In this document: positions 2,761 to 38,339 of the stretch, one piece after another
Layout: each line of letters opens with the position of its first letter
Position numbering within the stretch: position 1 is the stretch's first letter
IMG/VR virus record: IMGVR_UViG_3300031841_001583
Location: 1 to 44,378 of that record
Strand: one strand, 5' to 3'
DNA from: a virus
Taxonomy: Duplodnaviria; Caudoviricetes
Length of the DNA: 44,378 bases
Position numbers and translations under genes: made by a program
Notes under the pieces: generated by a model
Seen by the model: the letters and a program-made list of their open reading frames with translations, nothing else
The model's database searches: none
Told to the model about the DNA's origin: nothing

Positions 2761-5664
2761 TTAATCGTAAGTGACTTCAGGTTGGCCTGTGAAGACGATG
2801 TCCGCACAGAAGTCAGCGTTCTTGACGTATGGGATAACATCCCACGGTTCAGCACCCGGACCCCAGTAGGTTCCGACTGCGCCGTCGATGTCGATAACGT
2901 CGCCTTCCTCAAGACCCGTGACGGTTCTCGATTGAGCAACGTACGTCGATGTCGTCAGGGTGTGGTACCCGACAAGCACTCCGTTCTTCGTGACACGAAT
3001 GGATGCGTTGACGTAGGGTGAGGCTGTCGAGGTCGTGTTCTTCTTCATCTCGAACTTGATCTTACAGCTTCCACCTTTGTCGGTCGTGAAGGTCTTCAAA
3101 GTCTGGTACGACCACGACCCACTCCATGTACCAGTCGCCCAACGCTCGGTGTCAGCACTGACAATGACTGCGTCAGATGCGGAGTAGACACCCACGTTGA
3201 TGATGCCGGATACGGTCAGGTCTGTCCCGTCGAATGACAGGTAGTTGCCGTTGGCCTTGTTGCCCACGTAGAACTTGTAGGCACTCGTGTCGTAGCCCAA
3301 GAAGAAACCTGCGCCAGTCTCGAAGCCTGCTCCTGTCGATAGCATCTTGCCTGTGGTACCAACAGTCAGCGTACCGTCAACTGTTAGTGAACCAGTCTGT
3401 GTATCAACGGCAGAGAGGTTCGTCACGTTGATCTTCGCCGCAGTGACAGCACCTGCCAGAATCTCATTCGCCGTGATGGCGTTAGCAGAGATGTGCGTGG
3501 TGCTGATCGCGTTGGTGCCGATCTGTGTCGAACCGATGGTGCCGTTAATCATGGACTGGCCGTTGATCGTACCAGTGACAATCATGTCGCCGTCGATCTG
3601 AAGCAGTTCAGCCACACCGTCCCACCATATCTTCGGTGTGAAGGTGACAGGATCAACAACTGAGAAGTTGTCCGCAACGATCACGAAGGAACCAGTGGAA
3701 CCATCGTTGAGCTGCGTGAACCCAGTGACCCGTCCACCCACGTCCAGCGTTACGCCGTAGTGTGCTTCGAGATCAGAGATACCTGTCTCTGCGTTGGTGA
3801 TAGCCGATGCGTTGGCAGTGATGTTGATGTTGGAACTGTCGACTCGTCCATCCACCGCAACAACCGAAGCATTCACGTCAGTGATTGCCGATGCGTTGGC
3901 CGTGATGAGTCCACCCTGCGATGTGACCGTACTGTCAAGCGTCGAGATTGACGATGCGTTGGCAGCCATAGCCGCGTTATCTGTGGGGGACCATACGGTA
4001 CCCGTCCAGATGTGCAGGTTGTTGTTGTCACTCGTGTCGATCCAGAGGTCGCCTGCGTTGTCAGCAGTCGGGGCGGTGCCCTGATGGAAGACGCGATTCC
4101 GGTTAGACAGCGTAGCCTGTACGCCTGTGATAGCCGATGCGTTGGACGTTACGTTGCCGTCAGTCGTCACGATGCTGTTGGCGTTCGTAACGATGTCAGC
4201 CTGAGCTGTCGTCACGTCACCCTGTAGCGTGGTGATGTCCGTCTGGACCGTAGAGATGTCCGATGCGTTGGCCGTGATGTTGCCTGCGTTGGTCGTCACA
4301 TTCGTAGACAGGGACGAGAGGGCGGCAGCATTGCCAGCAATGGCAGCATCCTGAGCCTCGACCCAGCTCACACCGTTGTATCGGTAGAGCTTGTTGTCGT
4401 CCGAGTCGATCCACAGATCGCCAGCATTCAGGTCAAGCGTAGGAGCGAGAGCCTGCATGTACGTGCGCGAGCGCAGGTCCACGTCAGTCTGCAACGTCGT
4501 GATGGACGATGCGTTAGTACTGATGTCGCCAGCATTGGTAGTTACGTCCGTCTGTAGCACGGAGACAGCCGCCGCGTTGGCGACGATGTCACCTTCAGCA
4601 CTCGTGACGCGAACGTCAAGGGCCGTAACGTCAGACGCTATGGCCGAGTCAGCGTTGGTGCGTGCTGTCTGCTCTGTGATGATGTCAGCCGCGTTGGTGT
4701 CAGCGTCAGCCTGTGCCGCAGCCGTAGCCGCAGACAAAGTGGTGAAGCGTGTACCCAGTGACTCAGCTGGTCCGACATAGGCAGTCGTCAGGTCGATCAC
4801 GAAGGCAGTGCCGCCAGCATTCTCCGCGCCGATGAGGGCGAGGGTCGAGGCAGTTGCCGAGTCAGCGTTAGAGCGGACAAGAGATTCAGCCACGATTGCA
4901 GCTGCGTTATCCGCAGTGTCAACTTGCAGTACCGAGATGGCAGCCGCGTTGTTGCCGATGCGGGGATCGTTGATGTCGACCCACACGCCAGCCGTGTAGA
5001 TGTACGCAGCGTTGTTGTCGTCGCTGTCGTACCAACGTGCGCCTTCAGGTATCGGGTTAGGGATACCACCGACACCGGGCACAGGTTCTGTTGCCTGAAT
5101 GTAGACAGCAGCAGCTACACCCTGAGCCAGCGTGTTGAGCTGGACCTGTAGGGATTCACCGAGGGTGACGATAGCTTCTGCGTTCAGGTCGATGTCCGCG
5201 ATGCGAGCTTGCAGTGTCGCGGCAGCTTCCTTGTTAATCATCTCATTCACGAGCGCCGCGATGATTGCGTCGGACTCGGTTTCGACAATGCCCTGACCCG
5301 TAGCTACGTTAAAGAGCGTCTCATTGATAAGCTCATTGAAGCTGTCAGCGTACTCTTGGGACAGGTAGTAAGTGTGGAGGTAAGCCGTGTCGAGATCATT
5401 CGCACGTAGCGTTGATCCATCGACGAAGTCTACCAGTATGTTCGACGGTGAGGTCCACCGTTTGATTTCGATAGCACTGCCATCACCGGGGGCGTTGACG
5501 AACTTGATGGTTGAACTGTTCGTCCACGTGTAGTGCATAGTGGTGAGTTGCAGCACCTCGTCAAGGTACACATTGATGTGACCCTGTGCGATGTAGGGCA
5601 TGGGGACGTTGTACGACTTGGTAACACCATCACCTTCGTACAGCACCTTGGATGAGAATGACAT
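2761..5664 (-). CDS. Tail fibre/spike with T7 gp17-like N-terminal anchor (967 aa)
   Basis: N-terminus (YEGDGVTKSYNVPMPYI...LVDFVDGSTLRANDLD) resembles the gp17 anchor. Heptad repeats and repeated GDLWID..N.L..W.G..W modules. Start moved to ATG 5664 (GGAG SD). Confidence 0.88.
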   Translation of the reverse strand: MSFSSKVLYEGDGVTKSYNVPMPYIAQGHINVYLDEVLQLTTMHYTWTNSSTIKFVNAPGDGSAIEIKRWTSPSNILVDFVDGSTLRANDLDTAYLHTYYLSQEYADSFNELINETLFNVATGQGIVETESDAIIAALVNEMINKEAAATLQARIADIDLNAEAIVTLGESLQVQLNTLAQGVAAAVYIQATEPVPGVGGIPNPIPEGARWYDSDDNNAAYIYTAGVWVDINDPRIGNNAAAISVLQVDTADNAAAIVAESLVRSNADSATASTLALIGAENAGGTAFVIDLTTAYVGPAESLGTRFTTLSAATAAAQADADTNAADIITEQTARTNADSAIASDVTALDVRVTSAEGDIVANAAAVSVLQTDVTTNAGDISTNASSITTLQTDVDLRSRTYMQALAPTLDLNAGDLWIDSDDNKLYRYNGVSWVEAQDAAIAGNAAALSSLSTNVTTNAGNITANASDISTVQTDITTLQGDVTTAQADIVTNANSIVTTDGNVTSNASAITGVQATLSNRNRVFHQGTAPTADNAGDLWIDTSDNNNLHIWTGTVWSPTDNAAMAANASSISTLDSTVTSQGGLITANASAITDVNASVVAVDGRVDSSNINITANASAITNAETGISDLEAHYGVTLDVGGRVTGFTQLNDGSTGSFVIVADNFSVVDPVTFTPKIWWDGVAELLQIDGDMIVTGTINGQSMINGTIGSTQIGTNAISTTHISANAITANEILAGAVTAAKINVTNLSAVDTQTGSLTVDGTLTVGTTGKMLSTGAGFETGAGFFLGYDTSAYKFYVGNKANGNYLSFDGTDLTVSGIINVGVYSASDAVIVSADTERWATGTWSGSWSYQTLKTFTTDKGGSCKIKFEMKKNTTSTASPYVNASIRVTKNGVLVGYHTLTTSTYVAQSRTVTGLEEGDVIDIDGAVGTYWGPGAEPWDVIPYVKNADFCADIVFTGQPEVTYD

Positions 5665-19826: not shown

Positions 19827-19867
19827 TCGCGTTCTCCGGGGGGTGTTCAGTTAGAGGGGGCGTGCCT

Positions 19868-19885
19868 TCTGGGGGTGGCCCCCCC
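19868..19885 (-). promoter_or_regulatory. Putative phage RNAP promoter (late), variant GGGGGGGCCACCCCCAGA
   Basis: One-mismatch copy of the repeated motif, in the intergenic gap ahead of the structural module. Confidence 0.65.
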
Positions 19886-26397: not shown

Positions 26398-26847
26398 TCA
26401 GTTCTGGGGTTGGCCCCCCACTTTGCTCCACCATTCCAGAACATCGAATGATGGGCACGCCTTGTTCACATTGGGCATGTCCCTGTGTCCCAGCACAGTA
26501 GCGTCCGGGTATAGGTTGCGCAGGTCCTTGACCAATGATTCGAGTGCCTTCCATTGAAAGGCAGTGTAGTTACTCTCGGGTGTCTTCCCGTTAGATTCCA
26601 CCCCACCAACCATGCAGATGCCGAGGCTGATGTGGTTGAAACCACGCACGTGTGCGCCGGGTACATCGTGAGGTCGACCCTTCTGTACTTCCCCGTCCCG
26701 AGTTATCACAAAGTGGTAGCCGACATCCATCCATCCTTTCTGCCTGTGCCACCTCCGTATGTCCTCGACTGTGAAGTTCTGGTCTTCCTTCGTTGCTGAA
26801 CAATGGATCACGATGTACTCCACTGCCTTCAGCTTCTTCCAGTTCAT
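26398..26847 (-). CDS. N-acetylmuramoyl-L-alanine amidase (T7 lysozyme gp3.5-like)
   Basis: IVIHCSAT, GYHFVI, GAHVRG, GHRD and KACPSF motifs. Confidence 0.96.
   Translation of the reverse strand: MNWKKLKAVEYIVIHCSATKEDQNFTVEDIRRWHRQKGWMDVGYHFVITRDGEVQKGRPHDVPGAHVRGFNHISLGICMVGGVESNGKTPESNYTAFQWKALESLVKDLRNLYPDATVLGHRDMPNVNKACPSFDVLEWWSKVGGQPQN
26403..26419 (-). promoter_or_regulatory. Putative phage RNAP promoter in the 3' end of the amidase gene
   Basis: GGGGGGCCAACCCCAGA; precedes the primase/polymerase cluster. Confidence 0.65.
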
Positions 26848-28299: not shown

Positions 28300-28313
28300 T
28301 TGGTTTCCTCTGT

Positions 28314-28331
28314 TCTGGGGTTGGCCCCCCC
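28314..28331 (-). promoter_or_regulatory. Putative phage RNAP promoter (middle genes)
   Basis: GGGGGGGCCAACCCCAGA directly followed by SD and ATG. Confidence 0.7.
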
Positions 28332-28997: not shown

Positions 28998-31418
28998 TTA
29001 GGCGAAGAAGAAGTCGGCATCACGCACCTCCTCAAGGTCAAGGTCGCCTGCGTCTGGCGGTGTGGGTAGGTCAGGCCACTTGTCACCCGGCAGTGCCAGC
29101 AGTGTCGACTGGTACGTACGGGTGAGGATGTCCTCCGAGTACAGCTTGATGAACTCATCACGTATCACGTAGTGCAGCTCATCCACGTCACAGGCATGGA
29201 CTCCGAACGAGTCATGGATCATGGCCGTGTTAGGTGTGATGCCCTCGTCGTACAACCTGTTCACCACCATCATCAGATGGGTAGCATCCAGTGAGTGTAC
29301 GAAGTTGGGAGCCACACTCGACGCTTGCTTGCGTCCGTCGATGGTCCTGCTCTCCACCCTCAGCGTCAGCCTGATGCGCTGGCCTTGGAACCAGACCTTG
29401 AACAGCTGACCCTTCGCCTTGCGGTACGGCTGTACCACAGGGAACCCGAGTGGTGTGACCCACGAGGTCGGTATCTCCTCGGCGGTGAGTGCCTTGGCCA
29501 CCAGCTTGAGCCAGTCCATTGCCTCAGCCGCACGCTTGACGACCTGCCTGATGGCAGCCTCGACGATGGGTGCGAGGAACAAGGCAGCTGCCCAGTTCTC
29601 ATGCCCCGGCAGGTACTGACCGTCAGTCTGCTTGCGCATCTCACTGGCGATCTGATCCCTGATCCCGACACTCGTCACCGAGTATGCGAAGGTCATGCAC
29701 GGACGCTTGACGATCTTGCGATCCACCTTGTCCATCCACACCTTAGCAAGCGGGTCAGAATTTTCTGCCAGCATATCCTGCACCACACCCAGCACCTCGG
29801 TGTAGATGTCCGAGGGTTGGTCGAGCTTGGTCAGGTTGACAGCACGTCCACCCTCACTGTCACGCAGCATGGCGCTGAAGTGCTGGATGCCAGAGCATGA
29901 CCCGTCCATTGCGATGGGCAGGTGAGACACGTAGTCATCACCCTCGATCTGGAAGCCAGCCCACTCGAAGCATGCGGCCAGCGCACACCACGGGTCGTCA
30001 GCCTTGGCCCAGAACCTGTCGCCATCGAGCGGGTTGAGTGCGCTGTCGAGTAGCTTGTCCGACTGCGTGATCGTCCACTCCACCCGGTCATCGAACGATA
30101 CCTTGTCGACACCGAACAGGTTGGCGATCTGCACTGCCAGCCAGTACCCACCAGTCTCACCGAGTGCCTTGCCGTTGCCGAATTCAATCAGGCTCTTGGC
30201 AATGTCATCACCCTGCGGTGACAGCTCGGTCGTCATGGAGTACACCCGACCACGGAAGTCCAGCGAGTGCGGGAACCAGATAGCTTCCTCATCTCGCACG
30301 TCCTGTGCCATGTTCAGCTTGGTGATGAGTGCCAGTCGCTTGCTCTTAAGCTGACCGTTGAACTCATGCACCTGCCGTGCCGCCTGCTTCCACTCGTTGA
30401 ACGTGGCACGCATGTCCTCCGGCATGTCATCGGGACTGCACTTGCGGTCGATAGACTCAGGCCGCTCGGGCAGTGCCAAGTCGTCAGCCTGTGGCAGGCC
30501 ACCGAGAGTACCACCCTCGTCGTACACTGACTGCATGACATCAAGCACACCAGTATTGATGCGCCACGGTGTCGACTGCACCCTGTTCACGGCACGGTAC
30601 ACCTCGGGCATGTCACAGCTGAACACCTCGTCACGTGTGGCCTGCCCTACGCCACGCACCAAGTCAGTCTTCATGCGTGGTGTCAGGTATCCTCCCGAGA
30701 TGGGAGAAGTCCAAGGCTTAGGCGGCGCGATCATCGGCTTGTTCACTGGACGCTCACCTTCAAGGCTTGCGTGTCGTGAGGCCAGACGCTCGGCTGCCAG
30801 CTCAGTCATCTCGATCAACTTGAAGGTCATCTTGCCCTCTTGTGTCTCGACCAGCTGCGCCAGCCCCGTTGTCTCGATGTACAACTCGACCAGCTTGACA
30901 CCCAGCTTCAATTTTTCACCCTCACTCCAGCCCATCGTGGCCACACCTGCTACCTGTGCTGCCTTGCGCATGATGCGACGACGTGCCCCGCTACTGCTCC
31001 ACTTCTGTGCCTTGCGGGACATGCTGTTGGCCAGTGCAGGTTCAGCCTGCTCCAGTTCCTCGAACCTGTAGTCCTCCTCGATCAGGTTCGCAATCTGCAT
31101 TGCGGTACGGGTCAGCTTGCCCCGGTTCACGGATGCCGACACCACCACCTTGCTTGCGATGTATGCGATGGCATCTGCCTTCATGCCTACCATGTACTGA
31201 TAGGCCAGTGGTACCTGCGATGGCAGGTTGCCGTTGCCTCCCTCCTCAAGGCGGGCAATGTTCCCTTCGATAGCAGGGATCAACGCCTTCATCCCTACAT
31301 ACACAAGACCCAGTCCAGCAGTAGTCTCTCCGGCACCCTGCTTGCTAACCTCACGGTGATACCTTCTAACACCTTCATCTAACTGGGTTAATTCTCTCAT
31401 CTCTTGACGTTCAGTCAT
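28998..31418 (-). CDS. Single-subunit T7-type DNA-directed RNA polymerase
   Basis: DFRGRVY, motif A DGSCSGIQH, motif B RKIVKRPCMTFAY, APNFVHSLDA and motif C IHDSF; 806 aa. Confidence 0.98.
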   Translation of the reverse strand: MTERQEMRELTQLDEGVRRYHREVSKQGAGETTAGLGLVYVGMKALIPAIEGNIARLEEGGNGNLPSQVPLAYQYMVGMKADAIAYIASKVVVSASVNRGKLTRTAMQIANLIEEDYRFEELEQAEPALANSMSRKAQKWSSSGARRRIMRKAAQVAGVATMGWSEGEKLKLGVKLVELYIETTGLAQLVETQEGKMTFKLIEMTELAAERLASRHASLEGERPVNKPMIAPPKPWTSPISGGYLTPRMKTDLVRGVGQATRDEVFSCDMPEVYRAVNRVQSTPWRINTGVLDVMQSVYDEGGTLGGLPQADDLALPERPESIDRKCSPDDMPEDMRATFNEWKQAARQVHEFNGQLKSKRLALITKLNMAQDVRDEEAIWFPHSLDFRGRVYSMTTELSPQGDDIAKSLIEFGNGKALGETGGYWLAVQIANLFGVDKVSFDDRVEWTITQSDKLLDSALNPLDGDRFWAKADDPWCALAACFEWAGFQIEGDDYVSHLPIAMDGSCSGIQHFSAMLRDSEGGRAVNLTKLDQPSDIYTEVLGVVQDMLAENSDPLAKVWMDKVDRKIVKRPCMTFAYSVTSVGIRDQIASEMRKQTDGQYLPGHENWAAALFLAPIVEAAIRQVVKRAAEAMDWLKLVAKALTAEEIPTSWVTPLGFPVVQPYRKAKGQLFKVWFQGQRIRLTLRVESRTIDGRKQASSVAPNFVHSLDATHLMMVVNRLYDEGITPNTAMIHDSFGVHACDVDELHYVIRDEFIKLYSEDILTRTYQSTLLALPGDKWPDLPTPPDAGDLDLEEVRDADFFFA

Positions 31419-31485: not shown

Positions 31486-31492
31486 CTGGCCT

Positions 31493-31510
31493 TCTGGGGT
31501 TGGCCCCCCC
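31493..31510 (-). promoter_or_regulatory. Putative phage RNAP promoter upstream of the RNAP gene
   Basis: GGGGGGGCCAACCCCAGA, intergenic. Confidence 0.7.
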
Positions 31511-33349: not shown

Positions 33350-33690
33350 GCTACTACTCCTACGATTGAATCGCCAAGGTCCTCGATGCTCAGTACCCGC
33401 ACGTCAGGTGCGTGTTCCCAATCATTCTGGTACCAGTGAATCAGTTTGTACAGCCGACCGAGTGCCGCGTCGTCTGCGATGACGGTCAGCGTGACCCGTC
33501 CCGTGATGTTACCCTTCGAGTCACCGAAGCGTGCTTCACTGTCACGCTTGAGGTCCCCGAGTCCCTGCTTGGTGACGGCACGCATCAGGCGTATGACTGT
33601 CACCTTGATGGACTTCGGCTCGCACTCCAGCTCACCGTAGTGACCCAGCTCGTAGTCCTCTTGTGTTACCTGTACTTTCACGATGTTCAT
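33346..33690 (-). CDS. Early hypothetical protein
   Basis: 114 aa, GGAG SD. Confidence 0.65.
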   Translation of the reverse strand: MNIVKVQVTQEDYELGHYGELECEPKSIKVTVIRLMRAVTKQGLGDLKRDSEARFGDSKGNITGRVTLTVIADDAALGRLYKLIHWYQNDWEHAPDVRVLSIEDLGDSIVGVVA

Positions 33691-34310
33691 GCTTGCTCTC
33701 CCGGTATGTCCAACAGATAGATGTAGTGCCTGCGTGATACGTCCTCGCCACCCTCAAAGGTACCGACTCGGTCATTCACATGCTCGCACCAGTCGTCCCA
33801 CAATTTCTCACTCCCGCCACATGCCTCGATCAGTGCGAGGTAGACCGCGATCTTGTCGTCGATCTCACGCATCTGCTTGGCCGTGTCCTTGTACGTCCGC
33901 ACACTCCAGACGCCCACGTCCAGCCCGAACCGCTCGACGTTGTGCATGTCGAGGCAGCCTGACTTGCCCGTCAGTAGCTGCACGAGGAAGCCTGCTTTCG
34001 GCAGCCCCAGTCCCGGCACCTTCAGGAACTCACGCATCAGGTCAGCAGTGCTGAGTCGTCCTGCCCGTGCGTCCCGTGTCGCAGCATACAGTGCCTTGCG
34101 ATTGTCTCGCAGGTACACGTAGCCCGCCTGCTTGAAACCCCACAGGCACTTCGACTTGCTCCCGTGTACCTGCACGTCGGCCATCTGATTGCCCACTCCG
34201 ACCCACTGCATGCGGATCGAGAGCAGCACCATCGTGCCCACTCGCAGGAACTTGTCGGGGTTCTTACACCACGCTTGTATGCGTGCCTGATCGGTGCTAA
34301 ACATCAGCAT
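33687..34310 (-). CDS. Helix-hairpin-helix protein, DNA glycosylase/lyase-like
   Basis: FLKVPGLGLPKAGF...CLDMH matches the HhH plus downstream Asp pattern. Start is 34310 or 34304. Confidence 0.6.
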   Translation of the reverse strand: MLMFSTDQARIQAWCKNPDKFLRVGTMVLLSIRMQWVGVGNQMADVQVHGSKSKCLWGFKQAGYVYLRDNRKALYAATRDARAGRLSTADLMREFLKVPGLGLPKAGFLVQLLTGKSGCLDMHNVERFGLDVGVWSVRTYKDTAKQMREIDDKIAVYLALIEACGGSEKLWDDWCEHVNDRVGTFEGGEDVSRRHYIYLLDIPGEQA

Positions 34311-34539
34311 CTCCCGTCCATTTCCATTCACGTGACTCACCGTCACGCACCCAGTAGCTGTCGACCTTGTCGCCTATGCTCAGGACGCAGTAGTTCATGC
34401 TGTCCCATGCGTAGTGCGCGACCACCTTGTGCAGGTACGTCACCTCGCCAGCCTTGATCGTGTGCTTGGCCGTGCGGGTCGTCGACTCGCTGTCACTCCA
34501 CGTGTCCGCGAAGTACTCCATCGTCAGGCGTATGCCCAT
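34297..34539 (-). CDS. Early hypothetical protein (80 aa) downstream of hammerhead E
   Basis: ATG at 34539; its GAGGAG SD overlaps the ribozyme core. Confidence 0.65.
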   Translation of the reverse strand: MGIRLTMEYFADTWSDSESTTRTAKHTIKAGEVTYLHKVVAHYAWDSMNYCVLSIGDKVDSYWVRDGESREWKWTGDADV

Positions 34540-34547
34540 CGCAATCT

Positions 34548-34611
34548 CCTCATCAGCGTGCCTCGTATCGTCAGGCACGTACGCCCTGTGGAAGCGGCGT
34601 TTCGGTAACGT
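34548..34611 (-). ncRNA. Hammerhead ribozyme E (type II)
   Basis: ACGTTA-CC-GAAA-CGCC..GGCG-TA^-CGTGCCT-GACGATACG-AGGCACG-CTGATGA-GG; GUA cleavage after 34580. Confidence 0.85.
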
Positions 34612-34614
34612 CCT

Positions 34615-34632
34615 TCTGGGGTTGGCCCCCCC
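34615..34632 (-). promoter_or_regulatory. Putative phage RNAP promoter within the early region
   Basis: GGGGGGGCCAACCCCAGA immediately upstream of hammerhead E. Confidence 0.7.
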
Positions 34633-34635
34633 TCC

Positions 34636-35067
34636 CTATCCGGTGATGTCCTCACTCACGAACGGTCCCCCGCAGCAGTCGCACGGGCACTCACGTGCTA
34701 CCTTGCTCGCGATGAAGTCGACCGTGTCGTCGAGCGTGTAGCCCAGCAGCATGCCCAGCTCGTATTGCAGGCGCGAGCGGCTGATCCTGCCCTCTTTGCA
34801 GTCGAACACGAGGTCCGTGCCCAGTCGCGCCGGGTTAGTCTCACCCGGTACGATGTTGCGCCGTCCGATGAAGGCATGCTCGTGAAGCAGACCGTCCTCG
34901 CACCGTAGCATGGCCAGCTCAACCCACAGGTTGCTACGCTCGGCCATCATCACGATTGTCTCGTATGCGAGCGTCGACTTGCCCTCGGACACGATCATCA
35001 GCGGTTTCTCACCGTCATACACGTCCACGTATGCGCACATGCAGTCGTCGTAGTATGTCCTATCCAT
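34636..35067 (-). CDS. Early hypothetical protein (143 aa), Cys-rich C-terminus
   Basis: MDRTYYDDCMC...LGMLLGY...CPCDCC; GGGAG SD. Confidence 0.65.
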   Translation of the reverse strand: MDRTYYDDCMCAYVDVYDGEKPLMIVSEGKSTLAYETIVMMAERSNLWVELAMLRCEDGLLHEHAFIGRRNIVPGETNPARLGTDLVFDCKEGRISRSRLQYELGMLLGYTLDDTVDFIASKVARECPCDCCGGPFVSEDITG

Positions 35068-35323
35068 TTTCCACTCCCATTGCCGTGTTGACGGCATCCA
35101 GTGCGCCCTCGACCCACTCACTCAGGTACGATACAGGCGTGTTGCGTTTCAGGTTCATCAGGCGGCGCAGGTGCGTCGACACCTTGCGTCCACGTGACAT
35201 CGTCATGCCCTTGGCTTCGAGCCGAAGCGCATGCTTCCATTGTAGCAGCTGCCACGCGGATACCGTGATCGTGTCACCACGGTCGTTGTACTCCAGCTGC
35301 ACGGGCACGACTGCGGCCCTCAC
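35060..35323 (-). CDS. Early hypothetical protein (87 aa)
   Basis: GTGA coupling; ALRLEAKGMTMSRG. Confidence 0.65.
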   Translation of the reverse strand: MRAAVVPVQLEYNDRGDTITVSAWQLLQWKHALRLEAKGMTMSRGRKVSTHLRRLMNLKRNTPVSYLSEWVEGALDAVNTAMGVENG

Positions 35324-35445
35324 TTGCGGCCTGCCTTCCAGATGAACCGGAGCAGTGCTACGTACGCGGGAAGCAGGAACACGAGGCAGAACCAGACTGC
35401 CGCGATTGTCTGCGTGTTTGCGATGTTCGCGAGATTGTTTTCCAT
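35320..35445 (-). CDS. Small membrane peptide (41 aa) downstream of hammerhead D
   Basis: MENNLANIANTQTIAAVWFCLVFLLPAYVALLRFIWKAGRK; GAGG SD supplied by the ribozyme core. Confidence 0.6.
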   Translation of the reverse strand: MENNLANIANTQTIAAVWFCLVFLLPAYVALLRFIWKAGRK

Positions 35446-35452
35446 GTCATTT

Positions 35453-35512
35453 CCTCATCAGCGCATGCCGTATCGTCGCATGCGGACCTGCCGGAGCAGG
35501 TTTCGGTCACGT
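35453..35512 (-). ncRNA. Hammerhead ribozyme D (type II)
   Basis: ACGTGA-CC-GAAA-CCTGC-TCCG-GCAGG-TC^-CGCATGC-GACGATACG-GCATGCG-CTGATGA-GG; GUC cleavage after 35485. Confidence 0.88.
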
Positions 35513-35863
35513 GTACCGGGTGTCGATGTCGCTGTCGTGCGGGTAGTCGATCTGCCGTGGATCGTTAGGCGCGGGAGGCAGGATCGTCCAGACCCAGCGA
35601 CGTTCTGGCGTGCCGTCGTCATTCACGCCCATGTGCCATTCGCCCGAGCAGAAGCATACCCACGTATCCGGGTAGCGATAGCTGTACGAATCCTCACCGA
35701 TGCCCACGCCTGCGTCGTGATGAACCGTCACTTCCGAGTCGGTCCCGAACCCGCGTGGCTCGAAGTCGACGGGCAGGTACTCCGAGGTCCAGTCGATGCA
35801 CCTGCGAGTGTCGATCTGCTCGCCCCTGCGACCCGTCGCGGGATCGAACTTGAACACCTTCAC
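35507..35863 (-). CDS. Early hypothetical protein (118 aa)
   Basis: GAGG SD; its TGA stop lies in the 5' tail of hammerhead D. Confidence 0.65.
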   Translation of the reverse strand: MKVFKFDPATGRRGEQIDTRRCIDWTSEYLPVDFEPRGFGTDSEVTVHHDAGVGIGEDSYSYRYPDTWVCFCSGEWHMGVNDDGTPERRWVWTILPPAPNDPRQIDYPHDSDIDTRYT

Positions 35864-36084
35864 GCCAGCACCTCACGGGCGACGGTGTCCAGCCAGCTTG
35901 CGCGGAAGTCGATCAGCGCCCCGCACGTGCCCGGATTGTCCATGCTCGTGTACCGCGATTTGATCCGGTCACTGCCCTCGTACACGTGAGCCGTCAGGTG
36001 CGCCGTGCGCGTCCTGCGATTCGTGTTGGTCACGCACTCGATGCGGAACCCGTGCGGCAGCTTCACCGTATGCACGCGCCTCAC
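35860..36084 (-). CDS. Early hypothetical protein (74 aa)
   Basis: GTG start overlapping the upstream stop; GAGG SD. Confidence 0.6.
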   Translation of the reverse strand: MRRVHTVKLPHGFRIECVTNTNRRTRTAHLTAHVYEGSDRIKSRYTSMDNPGTCGALIDFRASWLDTVAREVLA

Positions 36085-36242
36085 GCCAGCACCTCGTACG
36101 CCTGTACCGAGCGGGTTGCGATGTCCAACCATTCGAGGTCGCCGTGCGGGAAGTCGATCACCTGCGCGGTGGGCGATTCGAGCGTGATCGTTTCGGTGAT
36201 TTCACTCACCTGCGTGGGTGTTACCGTTTTGCGATTTTCCAT
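36081..36242 (-). CDS. Early hypothetical protein (53 aa) downstream of hammerhead C
   Basis: Manual translation MENRKTVTPTQVSEI...YEVLA; GAGGAG SD overlaps the ribozyme core. Confidence 0.6.
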   Translation of the reverse strand: MENRKTVTPTQVSEITETITLESPTAQVIDFPHGDLEWLDIATRSVQAYEVLA

Positions 36243-36250
36243 GATTTTCT

Positions 36251-36314
36251 CCTCATCAGCGCGTGCCGTAAAGTCGCACGCGGACGGCCCGTGGAGGCAC
36301 CGTTTCGGTCACTT
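36251..36314 (-). ncRNA. Hammerhead ribozyme C (type II)
   Basis: AAGTGA-CC-GAAA-CGGTGCC-TCCAC-GGGCCG-TC^-CGCGTGC-GACTTTACG-GCACGCG-CTGATGA-GG; GUC cleavage after 36283. Confidence 0.88.
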
Positions 36315-36461
36315 GGCGGCCAGTCGCGCATTCCGCTTGGCCACGATGTCGCACGTGAGGTCGTGCAGGTATGAACCCTTCGCGGGTATCCGTGACGGCG
36401 TGCGAGCCGCCTTGCGTGCCAGTCGCGACGTGGCCGCATTGGCCCAATTCAGGCGACTCAC
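36309..36461 (-). CDS. Early basic hypothetical protein (50 aa)
   Basis: GTG start overlapping the upstream TGA; MSRLNWANAATSRLARK...; stop lies in the tail of hammerhead C. Confidence 0.5.
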   Translation of the reverse strand: MSRLNWANAATSRLARKAARTPSRIPAKGSYLHDLTCDIVAKRNARLAAK

Positions 36462-36604
36462 GAGCGTGCCAGCTTGGCGCGACGGTCATTCTCGGCACGC
36501 AGCGCGACCCAGTCGACATTCGAGCGTGCGCGGGTATCTGCCAGTGTTTCGGCGGCGTAGCGTGCGCGGGTTTGCACGCGGTGACTGCTATTCGATTTTG
36601 CCAT
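36458..36604 (-). CDS. Early basic hypothetical protein (48 aa) downstream of hammerhead B
   Basis: MAKSNSSHRVQTRARY...; GAGG/AGGA SD. Confidence 0.55.
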   Translation of the reverse strand: MAKSNSSHRVQTRARYAAETLADTRARSNVDWVALRAENDRRAKLARS

Positions 36605-36612
36605 TTTCCTAT

Positions 36613-36687
36613 CCTCATCAGCGTGCCCGATACGTGGGACACGGACGCGACACCCCGCATGTGCAGGGTGCGCGTTTCGGTCACGTG
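36613..36687 (-). ncRNA. Hammerhead ribozyme B (type II, long stem III)
   Basis: CACGTGA-CC-GAAA-CGCGCACCCTGCA..TGCGGGGTGTCGCG-TC^-CGTGTCCC-ACGTATC-GGGCACG-CTGATGA-GG; GUC cleavage after 36644. Confidence 0.85.
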
Positions 36688-36876
36688 TTACGCGGTTTTC
36701 TTGGCCTTCGCAGCGGGTGCGAGCGCCTTGTTGCACCAGTCCTCGACTGCACGCATGTGATTCGCGACTGCCTTCGGCACGTCCAATTCGACCGACTGCA
36801 ATGCAATCGCGGCCTTGCGATTCTTGGCACGTGCGGACAGGATTGCGCTGCGAGCTTCATTCGTGAGATTTGCCAT
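36688..36876 (-). CDS. First early protein (62 aa, basic, Ala-rich)
   Basis: GGAG SD; flanked by hammerheads A and B. Confidence 0.65.
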   Translation of the reverse strand: MANLTNEARSAILSARAKNRKAAIALQSVELDVPKAVANHMRAVEDWCNKALAPAAKAKKTA

Positions 36877-36894
36877 GATAATTCTCCAATTTTA

Positions 36895-36953
36895 CGTAGT
36901 TTCGGCCTGCTGGGCCTCATCAGGCGCACGATACGATCCAGTGCGCTACTACG
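36895..36953 (-). ncRNA. Hammerhead ribozyme A (type III)
   Basis: CGTAG-TA^-GCGCAC-TGGATCGTATC-GTGCGC-CTGATGA-GGCC-CAGCA-GGCC-GAAA-CTACG. All three stems are perfect; GUA cleavage after 36947. Confidence 0.93.
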
Positions 36954-37320
36954 CTCACATGCAACACTTGCGCGGTACACTTCCGACCAAAATCCATTCA
37001 AGGCAGGCGCGGAATTCTCGCACATGTGCCATGTGAGCGGGTTACACGTGGTTTCCAATGTTTCGGCCCAGTGTCCAGATCGTTTCACCCCGTAGGCATT
37101 CTCACCTCCCGTACGCGGGTTTCCCAGACACGTGAACTCTCACGTGATAGCGGCTTAATTCGCGGGTGCCGTGTTTCCAGTCGAATGCGCTGGAGCATAT
37201 TCCCGTATCCCATCGCGACCGTTCTGAATGCGGGCATTCCGCAAAGCTCAATTCCCGGTCTGGGACGGTCGACGGTAGCGGCTTGGAACCCTTCGGCCAA
37301 GAATCTGCTGGCCGTCGACG
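36947..37320 (-). ncRNA. Candidate large structured leader / ncRNA
   Basis: No convincing SD-led ORF; many inverted repeats and T-loop-like motifs; bounded by a sigma70-like promoter and hammerhead A. Confidence 0.5.
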
Positions 37321-37326
37321 ATTCAA

Positions 37327-37355
37327 ACAATGGACCTGCCGCCGAATTATTGCAA
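37327..37355 (-). promoter_or_regulatory. Putative host sigma70 early promoter
   Basis: TTGCAA-17 nt-CATTGT with an A-rich upstream tract. Confidence 0.5.
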
Positions 37356-37428
37356 GCCTTTTTTGGAAATAAATGGCCGATTGCCGCTAAGTGACTGAAT
37401 TATGGGCGATTTTAGATTGGAAATAAAT

Positions 37429-37890
37429 GGCACCCTGCCCGAATTCTGGCCGAATTCCCGCTATTTTCCGGCACCCTGCCCGCTATCAGGCACCCTTTCC
37501 GGCACCCTTGCGCACCCTTTCCGGCACTATCAGGCACCCTGCCCGCTATCCTGCCCGGTATCCTGCCCGGTACCGTGCCGGGTGCCGTGCCGTCGACTGG
37601 TAGCACCCTGCCCGCTATCGTGCCGGGTGCCGTGCCGGGTGCCGTGCCGTCGACTGGTAGTCTACTGGGAGTGGCCCCCCGTCGACTGCCGGACTTTTTC
37701 CCGCGTATATATAGTGTCGACAAAAAAACATATCGGGTGCCGGGTGCGAGTGCCGTACAGGATAGCGTGCCGTGACTGCCCGTCGACGTGCCGTGCCTGC
37801 CGGGTGCCTGATAGTGAACGTACCGGGTGCGAGCGGGTGCCGCGTGCCGGGTGCGCATTAGGTTCGCGGGCAGGGTAACGGGCAGGTCTG
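37429..37890. repeat. Array of short GC-rich repeats near the presumed left genome end
   Basis: Recurrent GCACCCTGCCCG, GTGCCGGGTGCC and GTCGAC units; position analogous to T7 terminal short repeats. Confidence 0.8.
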
Positions 37891-38008
37891 GCCCCCCGCG
37901 ATACGCGCATAGGAAGGAGGCACGGGGGCCACTGCGGCGTGTCCACGTAATGAACCCCGTTCAGATAACTATAGCAAAACTTTGAGGCTCTCCTCTGGTG
38001 TCACACCA

Positions 38009-38312: not shown

Positions 38313-38321
38313 ATCCTGCCC

Positions 38322-38339
38322 TCTGGGGTTGGCCCCCCC
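38322..38339 (-). promoter_or_regulatory. Putative phage RNAP promoter (phiOR-like position)
   Basis: GGGGGGGCCAACCCCAGA after the terminase gene. Confidence 0.7.

Follow-up and report, generated by a model that had tools for sequence, protein, structure and literature searches.

Five hammerhead ribozyme elements in the early operon of a T7-like phage, with a predicted 5′-side pseudoknot in the type II copies

Results

Early operon and hammerhead array

The virus record IMGVR_UViG_3300031841_001583 (Duplodnaviria; Caudoviricetes), analysed here over its whole length of 44,378 bases and referred to below as the window, carries five hammerhead ribozyme elements in the early operon of a T7-like phage. 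The record is classed 'linear' and its annotated phage genes lie on the minus strand. A PHROGs scan of 49 open reading frames (ORFs) revealed a T7-type RNA polymerase (RNAP) gene followed by ssb, endonuclease, amidase, primase/helicase, DNA polymerase and exonuclease genes, with further matches to head-tail adaptor, capsid, tail and terminase genes, all on one strand. The single-subunit RNAP gene (28998..31418, minus strand; phrog_414, E = 4e-235) is located downstream of the early gene blocks; its product is 41% identical to that of the nearest isolate, Caulobacter phage S2B, and the nearest isolates are labelled Autographiviridae in GenBank. With this polymerase and T7-type replication and structural genes on one strand, the genome is that of a T7-like phage, in agreement with a preliminary description of the early region.

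A structure-aware scan for the hammerhead core and three stems, covering three permutations and both strands of the whole window, returned exactly five sites, all on the minus strand: one of type III (36954-36894) and four of type II (36680-36613, 36308-36251, 35506-35453 and 34605-34548). The plus strand gave none. Dinucleotide shuffles contained on average 0.01 sites for the window (n = 100, maximum 1) and 0.001 sites for the array region only (n = 2000), which excludes a chance origin of the array. The sequence CTGATGAGG occurs five times on the minus strand, each time within a hammerhead element, and is absent from the plus strand. The core (C3 U4 G5 A6 N7 G8 A9, G12 A13 A14 A15, U16 H17; consensus taken from the methods of PMC3088659) is complete in all five elements, and in each it is closed by three stems with the pairs 1.1-2.1, 10.1-11.1 and 15.1-16.1 next to the core. 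The preliminary description had listed five complete sense-strand hammerheads, one of type III and four of type II, in spacers ahead of start codons; number, types, coordinates and positions are all borne out.

Element A (36894..36954, minus strand) is of type III, with 6 base pairs (bp) in stem I, 4 bp in stem II and 6 bp in stem III in addition to A15.1-U16.1. Its predicted cut falls after A36947 (GUA), and it is followed by a separate Shine-Dalgarno sequence (GGAG, 36887-36884) and an ATG at 36876. Elements B to E, likewise on the minus strand, show type II connectivity (stem II open) as in the Rfam family RF02276, with a stem I of 7 bp and a stem II of only 2 bp (CC/GG); short stems II of this kind are called common in hammerheads in PMC3088659. 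Element B (36604..36686) has its predicted cut after C36644, a 5′ tail (36686-36682) that can form 5 bp with loop I, a predicted Shine-Dalgarno sequence GAGGA (36616-36612) and an ATG at 36604. In element C (36242..36314), with a predicted cut after C36283, the tail AAGU may pair with the loop sequence ACUU; GAGGAG (36254-36249) and an ATG at 36242 follow. Elements D (35445..35511; predicted cut after C35485) and E (34539..34611; predicted cut after A34580, GUA) share a potential pairing of the tail CGU with loop ACG, and lead via GAGGA (35456-35452) to an ATG at 35445 and via GAGGAG (34551-34546) to an ATG at 34539, respectively.

Against Rfam, element A matched Hammerhead_3 (RF00008) over the full model (positions 1-54 of 54, type III connectivity) at 34.5 bits (E = 6e-5; gathering cut-off 48.5 not reached). 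Hammerhead_II (RF02276) matched element C at 32.6 bits (E = 5e-4) and element B at 18.1 bits (E = 3.1), both below its cut-off of 37, and elements D and E had no Rfam hammerhead match at E ≤ 10. The Rfam check proposed in the preliminary description thus succeeded by E-value for A, C and, weakly, B, and for no element at the gathering score. A model built from 22 related copies, in which B to E score 63-77 bits by construction, revealed no sixth type II copy in the window (next best, 13.8 bits). Folded alone, A and D have the hammerhead as their minimum-energy structure.

Among the first ten genes there are nine junctions, of which four are gapped (83, 66, 61 and 96 nucleotides, nt), each with one ribozyme, and five are overlaps of 4-5 nt; element A stands ahead of the first gene. 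Given a ribozyme in each gapped junction, each predicted fragment corresponds to one block of overlapping genes (1, 2, 3, 3 and the rest). The cut sites given in the preliminary description, after 36947, 36644, 36283, 35485 and 34580, are correct as predictions, and so are the resulting fragments. Block 1 (36688..36876; fragment of 303 nt) consists of one gene of 62 amino acids (aa), block 2 (36309..36604; 361 nt) of two overlapping genes of 48 and 50 aa, block 3 (35507..36242; 798 nt) of three overlapping genes of 53, 74 and 118 aa, and block 4 (34636..35445; 905 nt) of three overlapping genes of 41, 87 and 142 aa, all on the minus strand and of unknown function. Two of the 18 small early ORFs have PHROGs matches, both to families of unknown function, and at curated cut-offs neither PHROGs nor Pfam assigned any early gene to a named family. 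An early protein of approximately 205 aa (33687-34304, minus strand) is conserved and belongs to a viral family with OGG/HhH glycosylase-like neighbours in the ESM Atlas (feature score 0.94-0.95; TM 0.45 to an OGG-fold cluster), which offers a lead only.

Arrays in related phages

Syntenic copies in related phages, for which the preliminary description had suggested a search, do exist: five related phage lineages have arrays of two to six hammerheads at the corresponding position, with stems changed and genes reshuffled. The close relative L129/L226 (RNAP 97% identical) has all five elements and differs from the window by 6 changes in 322 ribozyme bases compared with 127 in 2915 elsewhere. Its cores are unchanged except that the cut site of A reads GUC instead of GUA, which is tolerated, and in stem I of E a C-G pair (34574/34562) is replaced by a compensatory A-U pair. 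Further lineages carry five type II elements plus a type III element with a 1-bp stem II, the latter read by eye (L144, RNAP 68%), one type III and four type II (L021, TerL 70%), one type III and three type II (L266), and one of each type (L223). G001 (RNAP 62%) has one type III and two type II elements, and the genes that follow them are homologous to the window's first, second and, weakly, third; its type II elements show the classical 3′ pairing (loop UGGU with 3′ ACCA) and a separate Shine-Dalgarno sequence, GGAG.

Homologous genes are preceded by different ribozymes in different relatives. The same elements were found in independent assemblies, and contigs from other sequencing runs leave the alignment at ribozyme borders. 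These contigs attest the array as DNA, no RNA run being among those listed. No match was obtained when the early region was compared by blastn with 50,697 phage records, and short type II queries (E ≤ 10) gave 17 and 4 records with matches of 18-30 nt, which we take as chance. As a separate observation, locus L590 of G001 carries, at approximately 3680-3745 on the sense strand and before a homologue of the window gene at 33690, two hairpins with loop ACUU and with AAGU upstream, and then GAGGAG; read by eye, this is a look-alike of the type II variant described below without a hammerhead core.

Shine-Dalgarno sequence within the type II ribozyme

From all loci, 164 distinct type II elements were collected, one of which lacked stem II and was dropped. 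The clade set of 23 elements comprised those of the window, those of loci with homologues of window proteins, and that of L339, which has no protein match and was placed in the clade by appearance alone; removal of two near-duplicates from the close relative left 21 clade copies, and the 140 other elements formed the comparison set. Pairing in stems I and III stands at 96%, and 10 of the 12 pairs show double-sided changes; the catalytic positions are all kept in all copies while stem sequences change freely. The earlier statement that the stems differ yet stay paired, pointing to selection on structure, agrees with these numbers.

Elements B to E read CUGAUGAGG(A), such that core G8-A9 and the 3′ strand of stem II together form GAGGA, with the ATG 7-8 nt after GAGG. 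All 21 clade copies have GAGG(A/U) followed at 6-9 nt by an ATG that opens an ORF of at least 29 codons, compared with 27 of the 140 others in which a first ATG lies within 12 nt at all. Stem II measures 2-3 bp in 19 of the 21. In elements C and D the in-frame stop codon of the upstream gene (TGA at 36311-36309 and 35509-35507, respectively) lies 5 to 3 nt before G12 and overlaps the strand predicted to form the pseudoknot. Accessibility of the Shine-Dalgarno sequence after the cut, as evaluated by two-dimensional ensemble folding that is blind to the hammerhead core and to the pseudoknot, went up in B, was mixed in C and D, and went down in E.

Pairing of loop I with the 5′ tail

Pairing between loop I and the 9 nt before stem II was stronger in the 21 clade copies (longest helix 3.71 bp) than after permutation (3.06 bp; p = 0.0005, a value that, like those below, overstates independence given that the copies are related). 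For the 9 nt after stem II no signal was seen in the same copies (2.43 versus 2.41 bp permuted). The 140 other type II copies displayed the converse behaviour, with 3.14 versus 2.27 bp on the 3′ side (0 of 2000 permutations) and no signal on the 5′ side (2.29 versus 2.28 bp). This result recovers the published 3′ pseudoknot and hence serves as a positive control for the pairing test. A pseudoknot of loop I with the 3′ tail, of the type described by Perreault et al. (PMC3088659), was rejected for the clade copies, their 3′ pairing being at the permuted level.

The register of the 5′ pairing is fixed: loop positions 2-4 face tail positions -5 to -7. Among 24 elements, namely the 19 clade copies ending in ACC and five from a second group (L354/L303/L318), this register gives pairs at 70 of 72 positions, compared with 8-18 when it is slid by 1-2 nt; the two clade copies with a 4-bp stem II were left out, and the offset of one of the 24, L332 with its 6-bp stem I, was set by hand. 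When no offsets were used, all three positions paired in 17 of 21 clade copies and in 8 of the 140 others, five of these eight coming from the loci of the second group. At position -7, which was never fixed by the search patterns, the clade copies show G-C nine times, U-A ten times, C-G once and one miss; across the 24 elements 22 are paired versus 8.0 after permutation (within-contig permutation, p = 0.011). Four copies in L021 have an identical stem I, yet two have the pairing ACU/AGU and two ACG/CGU. In the alignment of 22 copies the pairing likewise covaries: columns 4-57 carry CG in 9, AU in 6 and GC in 5 copies with 2 unpaired, and columns 6-55 carry UA in 16, CG in 5 and GC in 1. The pairs on either side are weak, with 14 and 9 of the 22 copies unpaired.

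The second group comes from a phage stretch that encodes a D5-like primase and has no match to the window proteins, and the 5′-tail variant is thus not confined to T7-like phages. This stretch (L354:5197-7629; L303; L318) carries an array of six ribozymes that mixes 5′-tail-paired copies (GCC/GGC, CCC/GGG) with ordinary copies having a 4-bp stem II. In L391, L417, L378, L388 and L443, loop I of type II copies contains an additional hairpin.

The literature searches, which largely left aside subscription journals, brought up no paper pointing to a Shine-Dalgarno sequence inside a natural hammerhead or to a 5′-tail hammerhead pseudoknot, with the type II alignment in Dataset S1 of PMC3088659 perhaps falling outside this search. 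These two features, which the preliminary description does not mention, are the new part of the array, and they make the type II copies a new structural variant in which the pairing is predicted from comparison of sequences. The 5′ pseudoknot can be read as a solution to the use of the 3′ side for ribosome binding.

Distribution of hammerheads in T7-like phages and beyond

Around T7-type RNAP genes, 82 loci were inspected (80 from IMG/VR and two from GenBank; many with little upstream DNA), and hits were obtained in five of them. All 11 hits lie upstream of the RNAP gene on the sense strand (310 kb), compared with none in the 782 kb from the RNAP gene onward. Among 55 records searched whole, ten matched the type I/III pattern and two the type II pattern; five of the 55 were GenBank records, three of them chosen for their match to element A. 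Two cultured Autographiviridae carry hammerheads in the same early region as the window, one of type III and one of type I in Caulobacter phage S2B and one of type III in Roseobacter phage CRP-125. These two phages make up the five GenBank records together with RHEph21 and TRX32-1, which have doubtful hammerheads with a 2-bp stem III, and jiawei, which has none. The element of CRP-125 (L141:5142-5230) shares 25 identical bases with element A and lies inside the annotated start of gp49, the true start of which is probably the ATG after the ribozyme. Few whole records have more than one hammerhead, indicating that large arrays are a trait of the window's group and not of T7-like phages at large.

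One type II pattern occurs in an estimated ~2100 IMG/VR stretches, and 79 of the 128 loci listed contain a structured hammerhead. Over 73 distinct contigs with long flanks, the number of copies was none in 32, one in 26, two in 7, three in 1, four in 3, and five, seven, eight and nine in one contig each. In GTDB, no structured type II hammerhead was present among the 120 loci listed for this kind of pattern (at least 120 match), and thus no host was found. L074:6001-8301 has five hammerhead-like repeats that scored poorly in the strict scan.

Leader and promoters

Ahead of the early region lies a non-coding stretch rich in repeats (37400-37960). It has short direct repeats (GGCACCCG, GTCGAC units), is flanked by the terminase region on one side and the early promoter on the other, and is likely the genome-end region. 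A candidate sigma-70-type host promoter (37327..37355, minus strand; TTGCAA, 17 nt, CATTGT) was below threshold in the sigma-70/terminator scan and not reported by it; similar promoter-like sites stand 238-515 nt before the first scanned ribozyme in five of the six clade relatives examined. The leader that follows (36947..37320, minus strand; approximately 375 nt) is without a convincing gene and is predicted to be released by A. Its 3′ end is an 88-nt hairpin (37039-36952, z = -4.26) directly 5′ of A, overlapping 2 nt of stem III of A. The lower stem of this hairpin is kept in the close relative, and hairpins also adjoin the type III element in L021 and G001. The first ~50 nt of the leader, a hairpin region, are 86-94% common with L266, and the middle segment is replaced in the close relative. 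As only short stretches of the leader are conserved beyond that relative, we claim no conserved leader RNA.

RNase III sites of the T7 type are long intergenic hairpins of about two helical turns. The stems of A to E, at 2-7 bp, fall short of this size, and the leader hairpin reaches it. By its predicted fold it could be an RNase III-type site, or possibly a protective 3′ end for the released leader. A sliding screen for such hairpins was too loose, with nearly every window passing, and was discarded.

An 18-nt repeat, able to form a 4-bp hairpin, has six minus-strand copies (38321-38338, 34614-34631, 31492-31509, 28313-28330, 26402-26419 and 19867-19884) that stand before middle and late genes, one of them just ahead of the RNAP gene. 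Variants with changed bases occupy matching places in L144 and G001. From these positions the repeat is probably a promoter of the phage RNAP. The copy at 34614-34631 abuts the 5′ tail of element E; given that it is altered in the close relative and that none of four copies in L144 adjoins a ribozyme, this adjacency is not conserved.

Discussion

The reading that we consider probable is that the early message would cleave itself co-transcriptionally into hairpin-capped mRNA units, the type II fold being braced by the predicted 5′-tail pseudoknot. Host polymerase would start near 37320, and each RNA would cut itself soon after its synthesis. A hammerhead cut leaves a 5′-OH and a cyclic phosphate, and hairpin ends of either kind resist RNase E and 3′ exonucleases. 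The downstream piece would thus begin with a 5′-OH directly followed by the 6-7 bp of stem I, and the upstream piece would carry the stem III hairpin at its 3′ end, terminated by a cyclic phosphate. Each block would gain standard, protected ends and be translated and decay on its own, as is the case for T7 RNase III products; the array likely works like these cuts of the T7 early mRNA. The type II copies would hold their active fold by pairing loop I with the 5′ tail, which we propose is used because the 3′ side serves as the ribosome-binding site of the next gene. Element E would probably trim the first ~34 nt off a transcript made by the phage polymerase. The unit of stop codon, ribozyme, Shine-Dalgarno sequence and ATG may serve as a portable gene header for the shuffling of small early genes. 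As to the earlier proposal that the transcript is processed without RNase III, the array supports self-cutting as the most likely course, while the leader hairpin could be an RNase III site.

Several points weigh against self-cleavage of this kind. At the gathering score Rfam has no hammerhead hit anywhere in the window. Folded alone, B, C and E have competing minimum-energy folds, and in context element A competes with the leader hairpin and with its own downstream spacer. The predicted pseudoknot comprises only 3-5 bp; for part of the set the search patterns themselves called for G at position -6 and a pyrimidine at position -5, and the independent changes behind the pairing statistics number perhaps four or five. 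In the close relative the difference in conservation between the ribozymes and the remainder is modest (1.9% versus 4.4% changes). Most T7-like phages can do without such arrays: after the structure check, 5 of the 50 IMG/VR records searched whole retained a hammerhead, with more than one only in G001. One gene in L144 does without a ribozyme: its header (4710-4750) has 23 nt identical to the 5′ tail of the next ribozyme, joined directly to the Shine-Dalgarno sequence, and is a ribozyme lost by deletion or recombination.

Cleavage might instead act as a translational switch, a reading that we regard as possible though unlikely, in which ribosomes could load only after the cut piece has left, and a ribosome halted at the upstream UGA would prevent folding and time the cut. 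The element would then be a ribozyme-gated translation cassette, and also a unit of gene swapping. The Shine-Dalgarno sequence built of core and stem II bases, with the ATG 6-9 nt later in every clade copy, the in-frame stop over the pseudoknot strand in C and D, and a stem II of merely 2-3 bp in most copies are what such a gate would look like. Ensemble folding, blind as it is to core and pseudoknot, nevertheless found no consistent opening of the Shine-Dalgarno sequence after the cut, G001 keeps an array with a separate Shine-Dalgarno sequence, and the overlap with the core may only save space. Less probable still, and in our view doubtful, is that the elements fold yet act mainly as repeated gene headers that supply a ribosome-binding site, hairpins and short homology for shuffling, with cutting slow, occasional or inconsequential. 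The different ribozymes ahead of homologous genes, the contigs that diverge at ribozyme borders, the ribozyme-less header of L144 and the core-less look-alike of G001 would all suit such headers. Against this, every catalytic position is kept in all copies while the stems are free to change, and in G001 these junctions carry another hammerhead subtype, which suggests that cutting is the function in common.

It is very improbable that pairs of ribozymes release fragments that are religated into circles, or that cutting mainly clears the early mRNA fast. Internal fragments would bear the 5′-OH and cyclic phosphate that ligation needs; spliced or circular products were looked for from such arrays by Perreault et al., however, and none were found (PMC3088659), and hairpins at both fragment ends would speak for protection rather than decay. 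Chance matches or an assembly artefact, to which the scores below the Rfam cut-offs might be taken to point, are refuted by the shuffles (0.01 sites per window) and by the presence of the same elements in independent assemblies and relatives. Self-cleavage of the early message into gene blocks is the reading that we retain as the most probable.

The genomic role of self-cleaving ribozymes in bacteria and phages is still described as unresolved in PMC6765202. A T7-like early operon with five hammerheads allows direct comparison with the best-studied phage message that is cut by a protein, and the cultured relatives S2B and CRP-125, with one or two hammerheads, would allow ends to be mapped during infection. 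The 5′-side pseudoknot, if true, would be a further way to brace a hammerhead, outside the Rfam type II model, that frees the 3′ end. The part of approximately 70 nt that combines cut and ribosome binding could serve as a compact insulator, and the core as a translation gate, if true, would make a naturally occurring parallel to engineered ribozyme switches.

Comparison with known systems

With respect to Rfam, element A fits RF00008 fully but below the gathering score; it is encoded in DNA and heads a phage operon. The type II copies share with RF02276 the open stem II, looped stems I and III, the core, A15.1-U16.1 and a cut after NUH. They differ in that the RF02276 consensus starts 4 nt before GAAA, such that the 5′ pairing strand is not covered, and has a conserved 3′ tail, to which Perreault et al. 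assign the pseudoknot. The PK hammerhead has, in place of helix II, a pseudoknot formed by an additional helix IV (PMC11300833). The window's type II copies likewise have the hammerhead core with a pseudoknot outside the core. Identity with the PK hammerhead (Weinberg 2015/Zhan 2024) was rejected, as B to E keep helix II, are without helix IV and use loop I as the partner.

T7 provides the functional comparison. There the early transcript of the host polymerase, ~7 kb long, is divided at five sites to give mono- and dicistronic mRNAs (PMC4858673), and the window has a predicted early transcript of ~8 kb with five predicted cuts. Unlike in T7, the RNA is predicted to cut itself, leaving 5′-OH and cyclic-phosphate ends in contrast to the 5′-phosphate carried by T7 RNase III products. 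All five sites, moreover, lie within the first 2.8 kb, and none stands directly before the RNAP gene.

The closest precedent is the clustered hammerheads between prophage genes described in 2011 (PMC3088659). In that paper, 14 of 18 consensus hammerheads tested were active, three triple arrays cleave, both in vitro and in E. coli, and the type II pseudoknot joins loop I with the 3′ tail, the bases just downstream of stem II; the terms 'Shine', 'ribosome' and 'translation' are absent from its main text. The array of the window is a further case of this known arrangement, and the idea is not new. The novelty suggested in the preliminary description accordingly applies in part: clustered phage and prophage arrays were already on record, and the same literature search gave no match for hammerheads in Autographiviridae. 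As in the prophages of Clostridium scindens, Azorhizobium caulinodans and Agrobacterium tumefaciens, hammerheads of mixed type lie between small genes on one transcript, and both kinds of array share the core, the short stem II and the proposed cutting of long phage RNAs into pieces of gene or operon length. Unlike those arrays, the one described here belongs to a T7-like phage that encodes an RNA polymerase, and it has five copies, a predicted pairing with the 5′ tail in place of the 3′ tail, and a Shine-Dalgarno sequence formed by the core and stem II.

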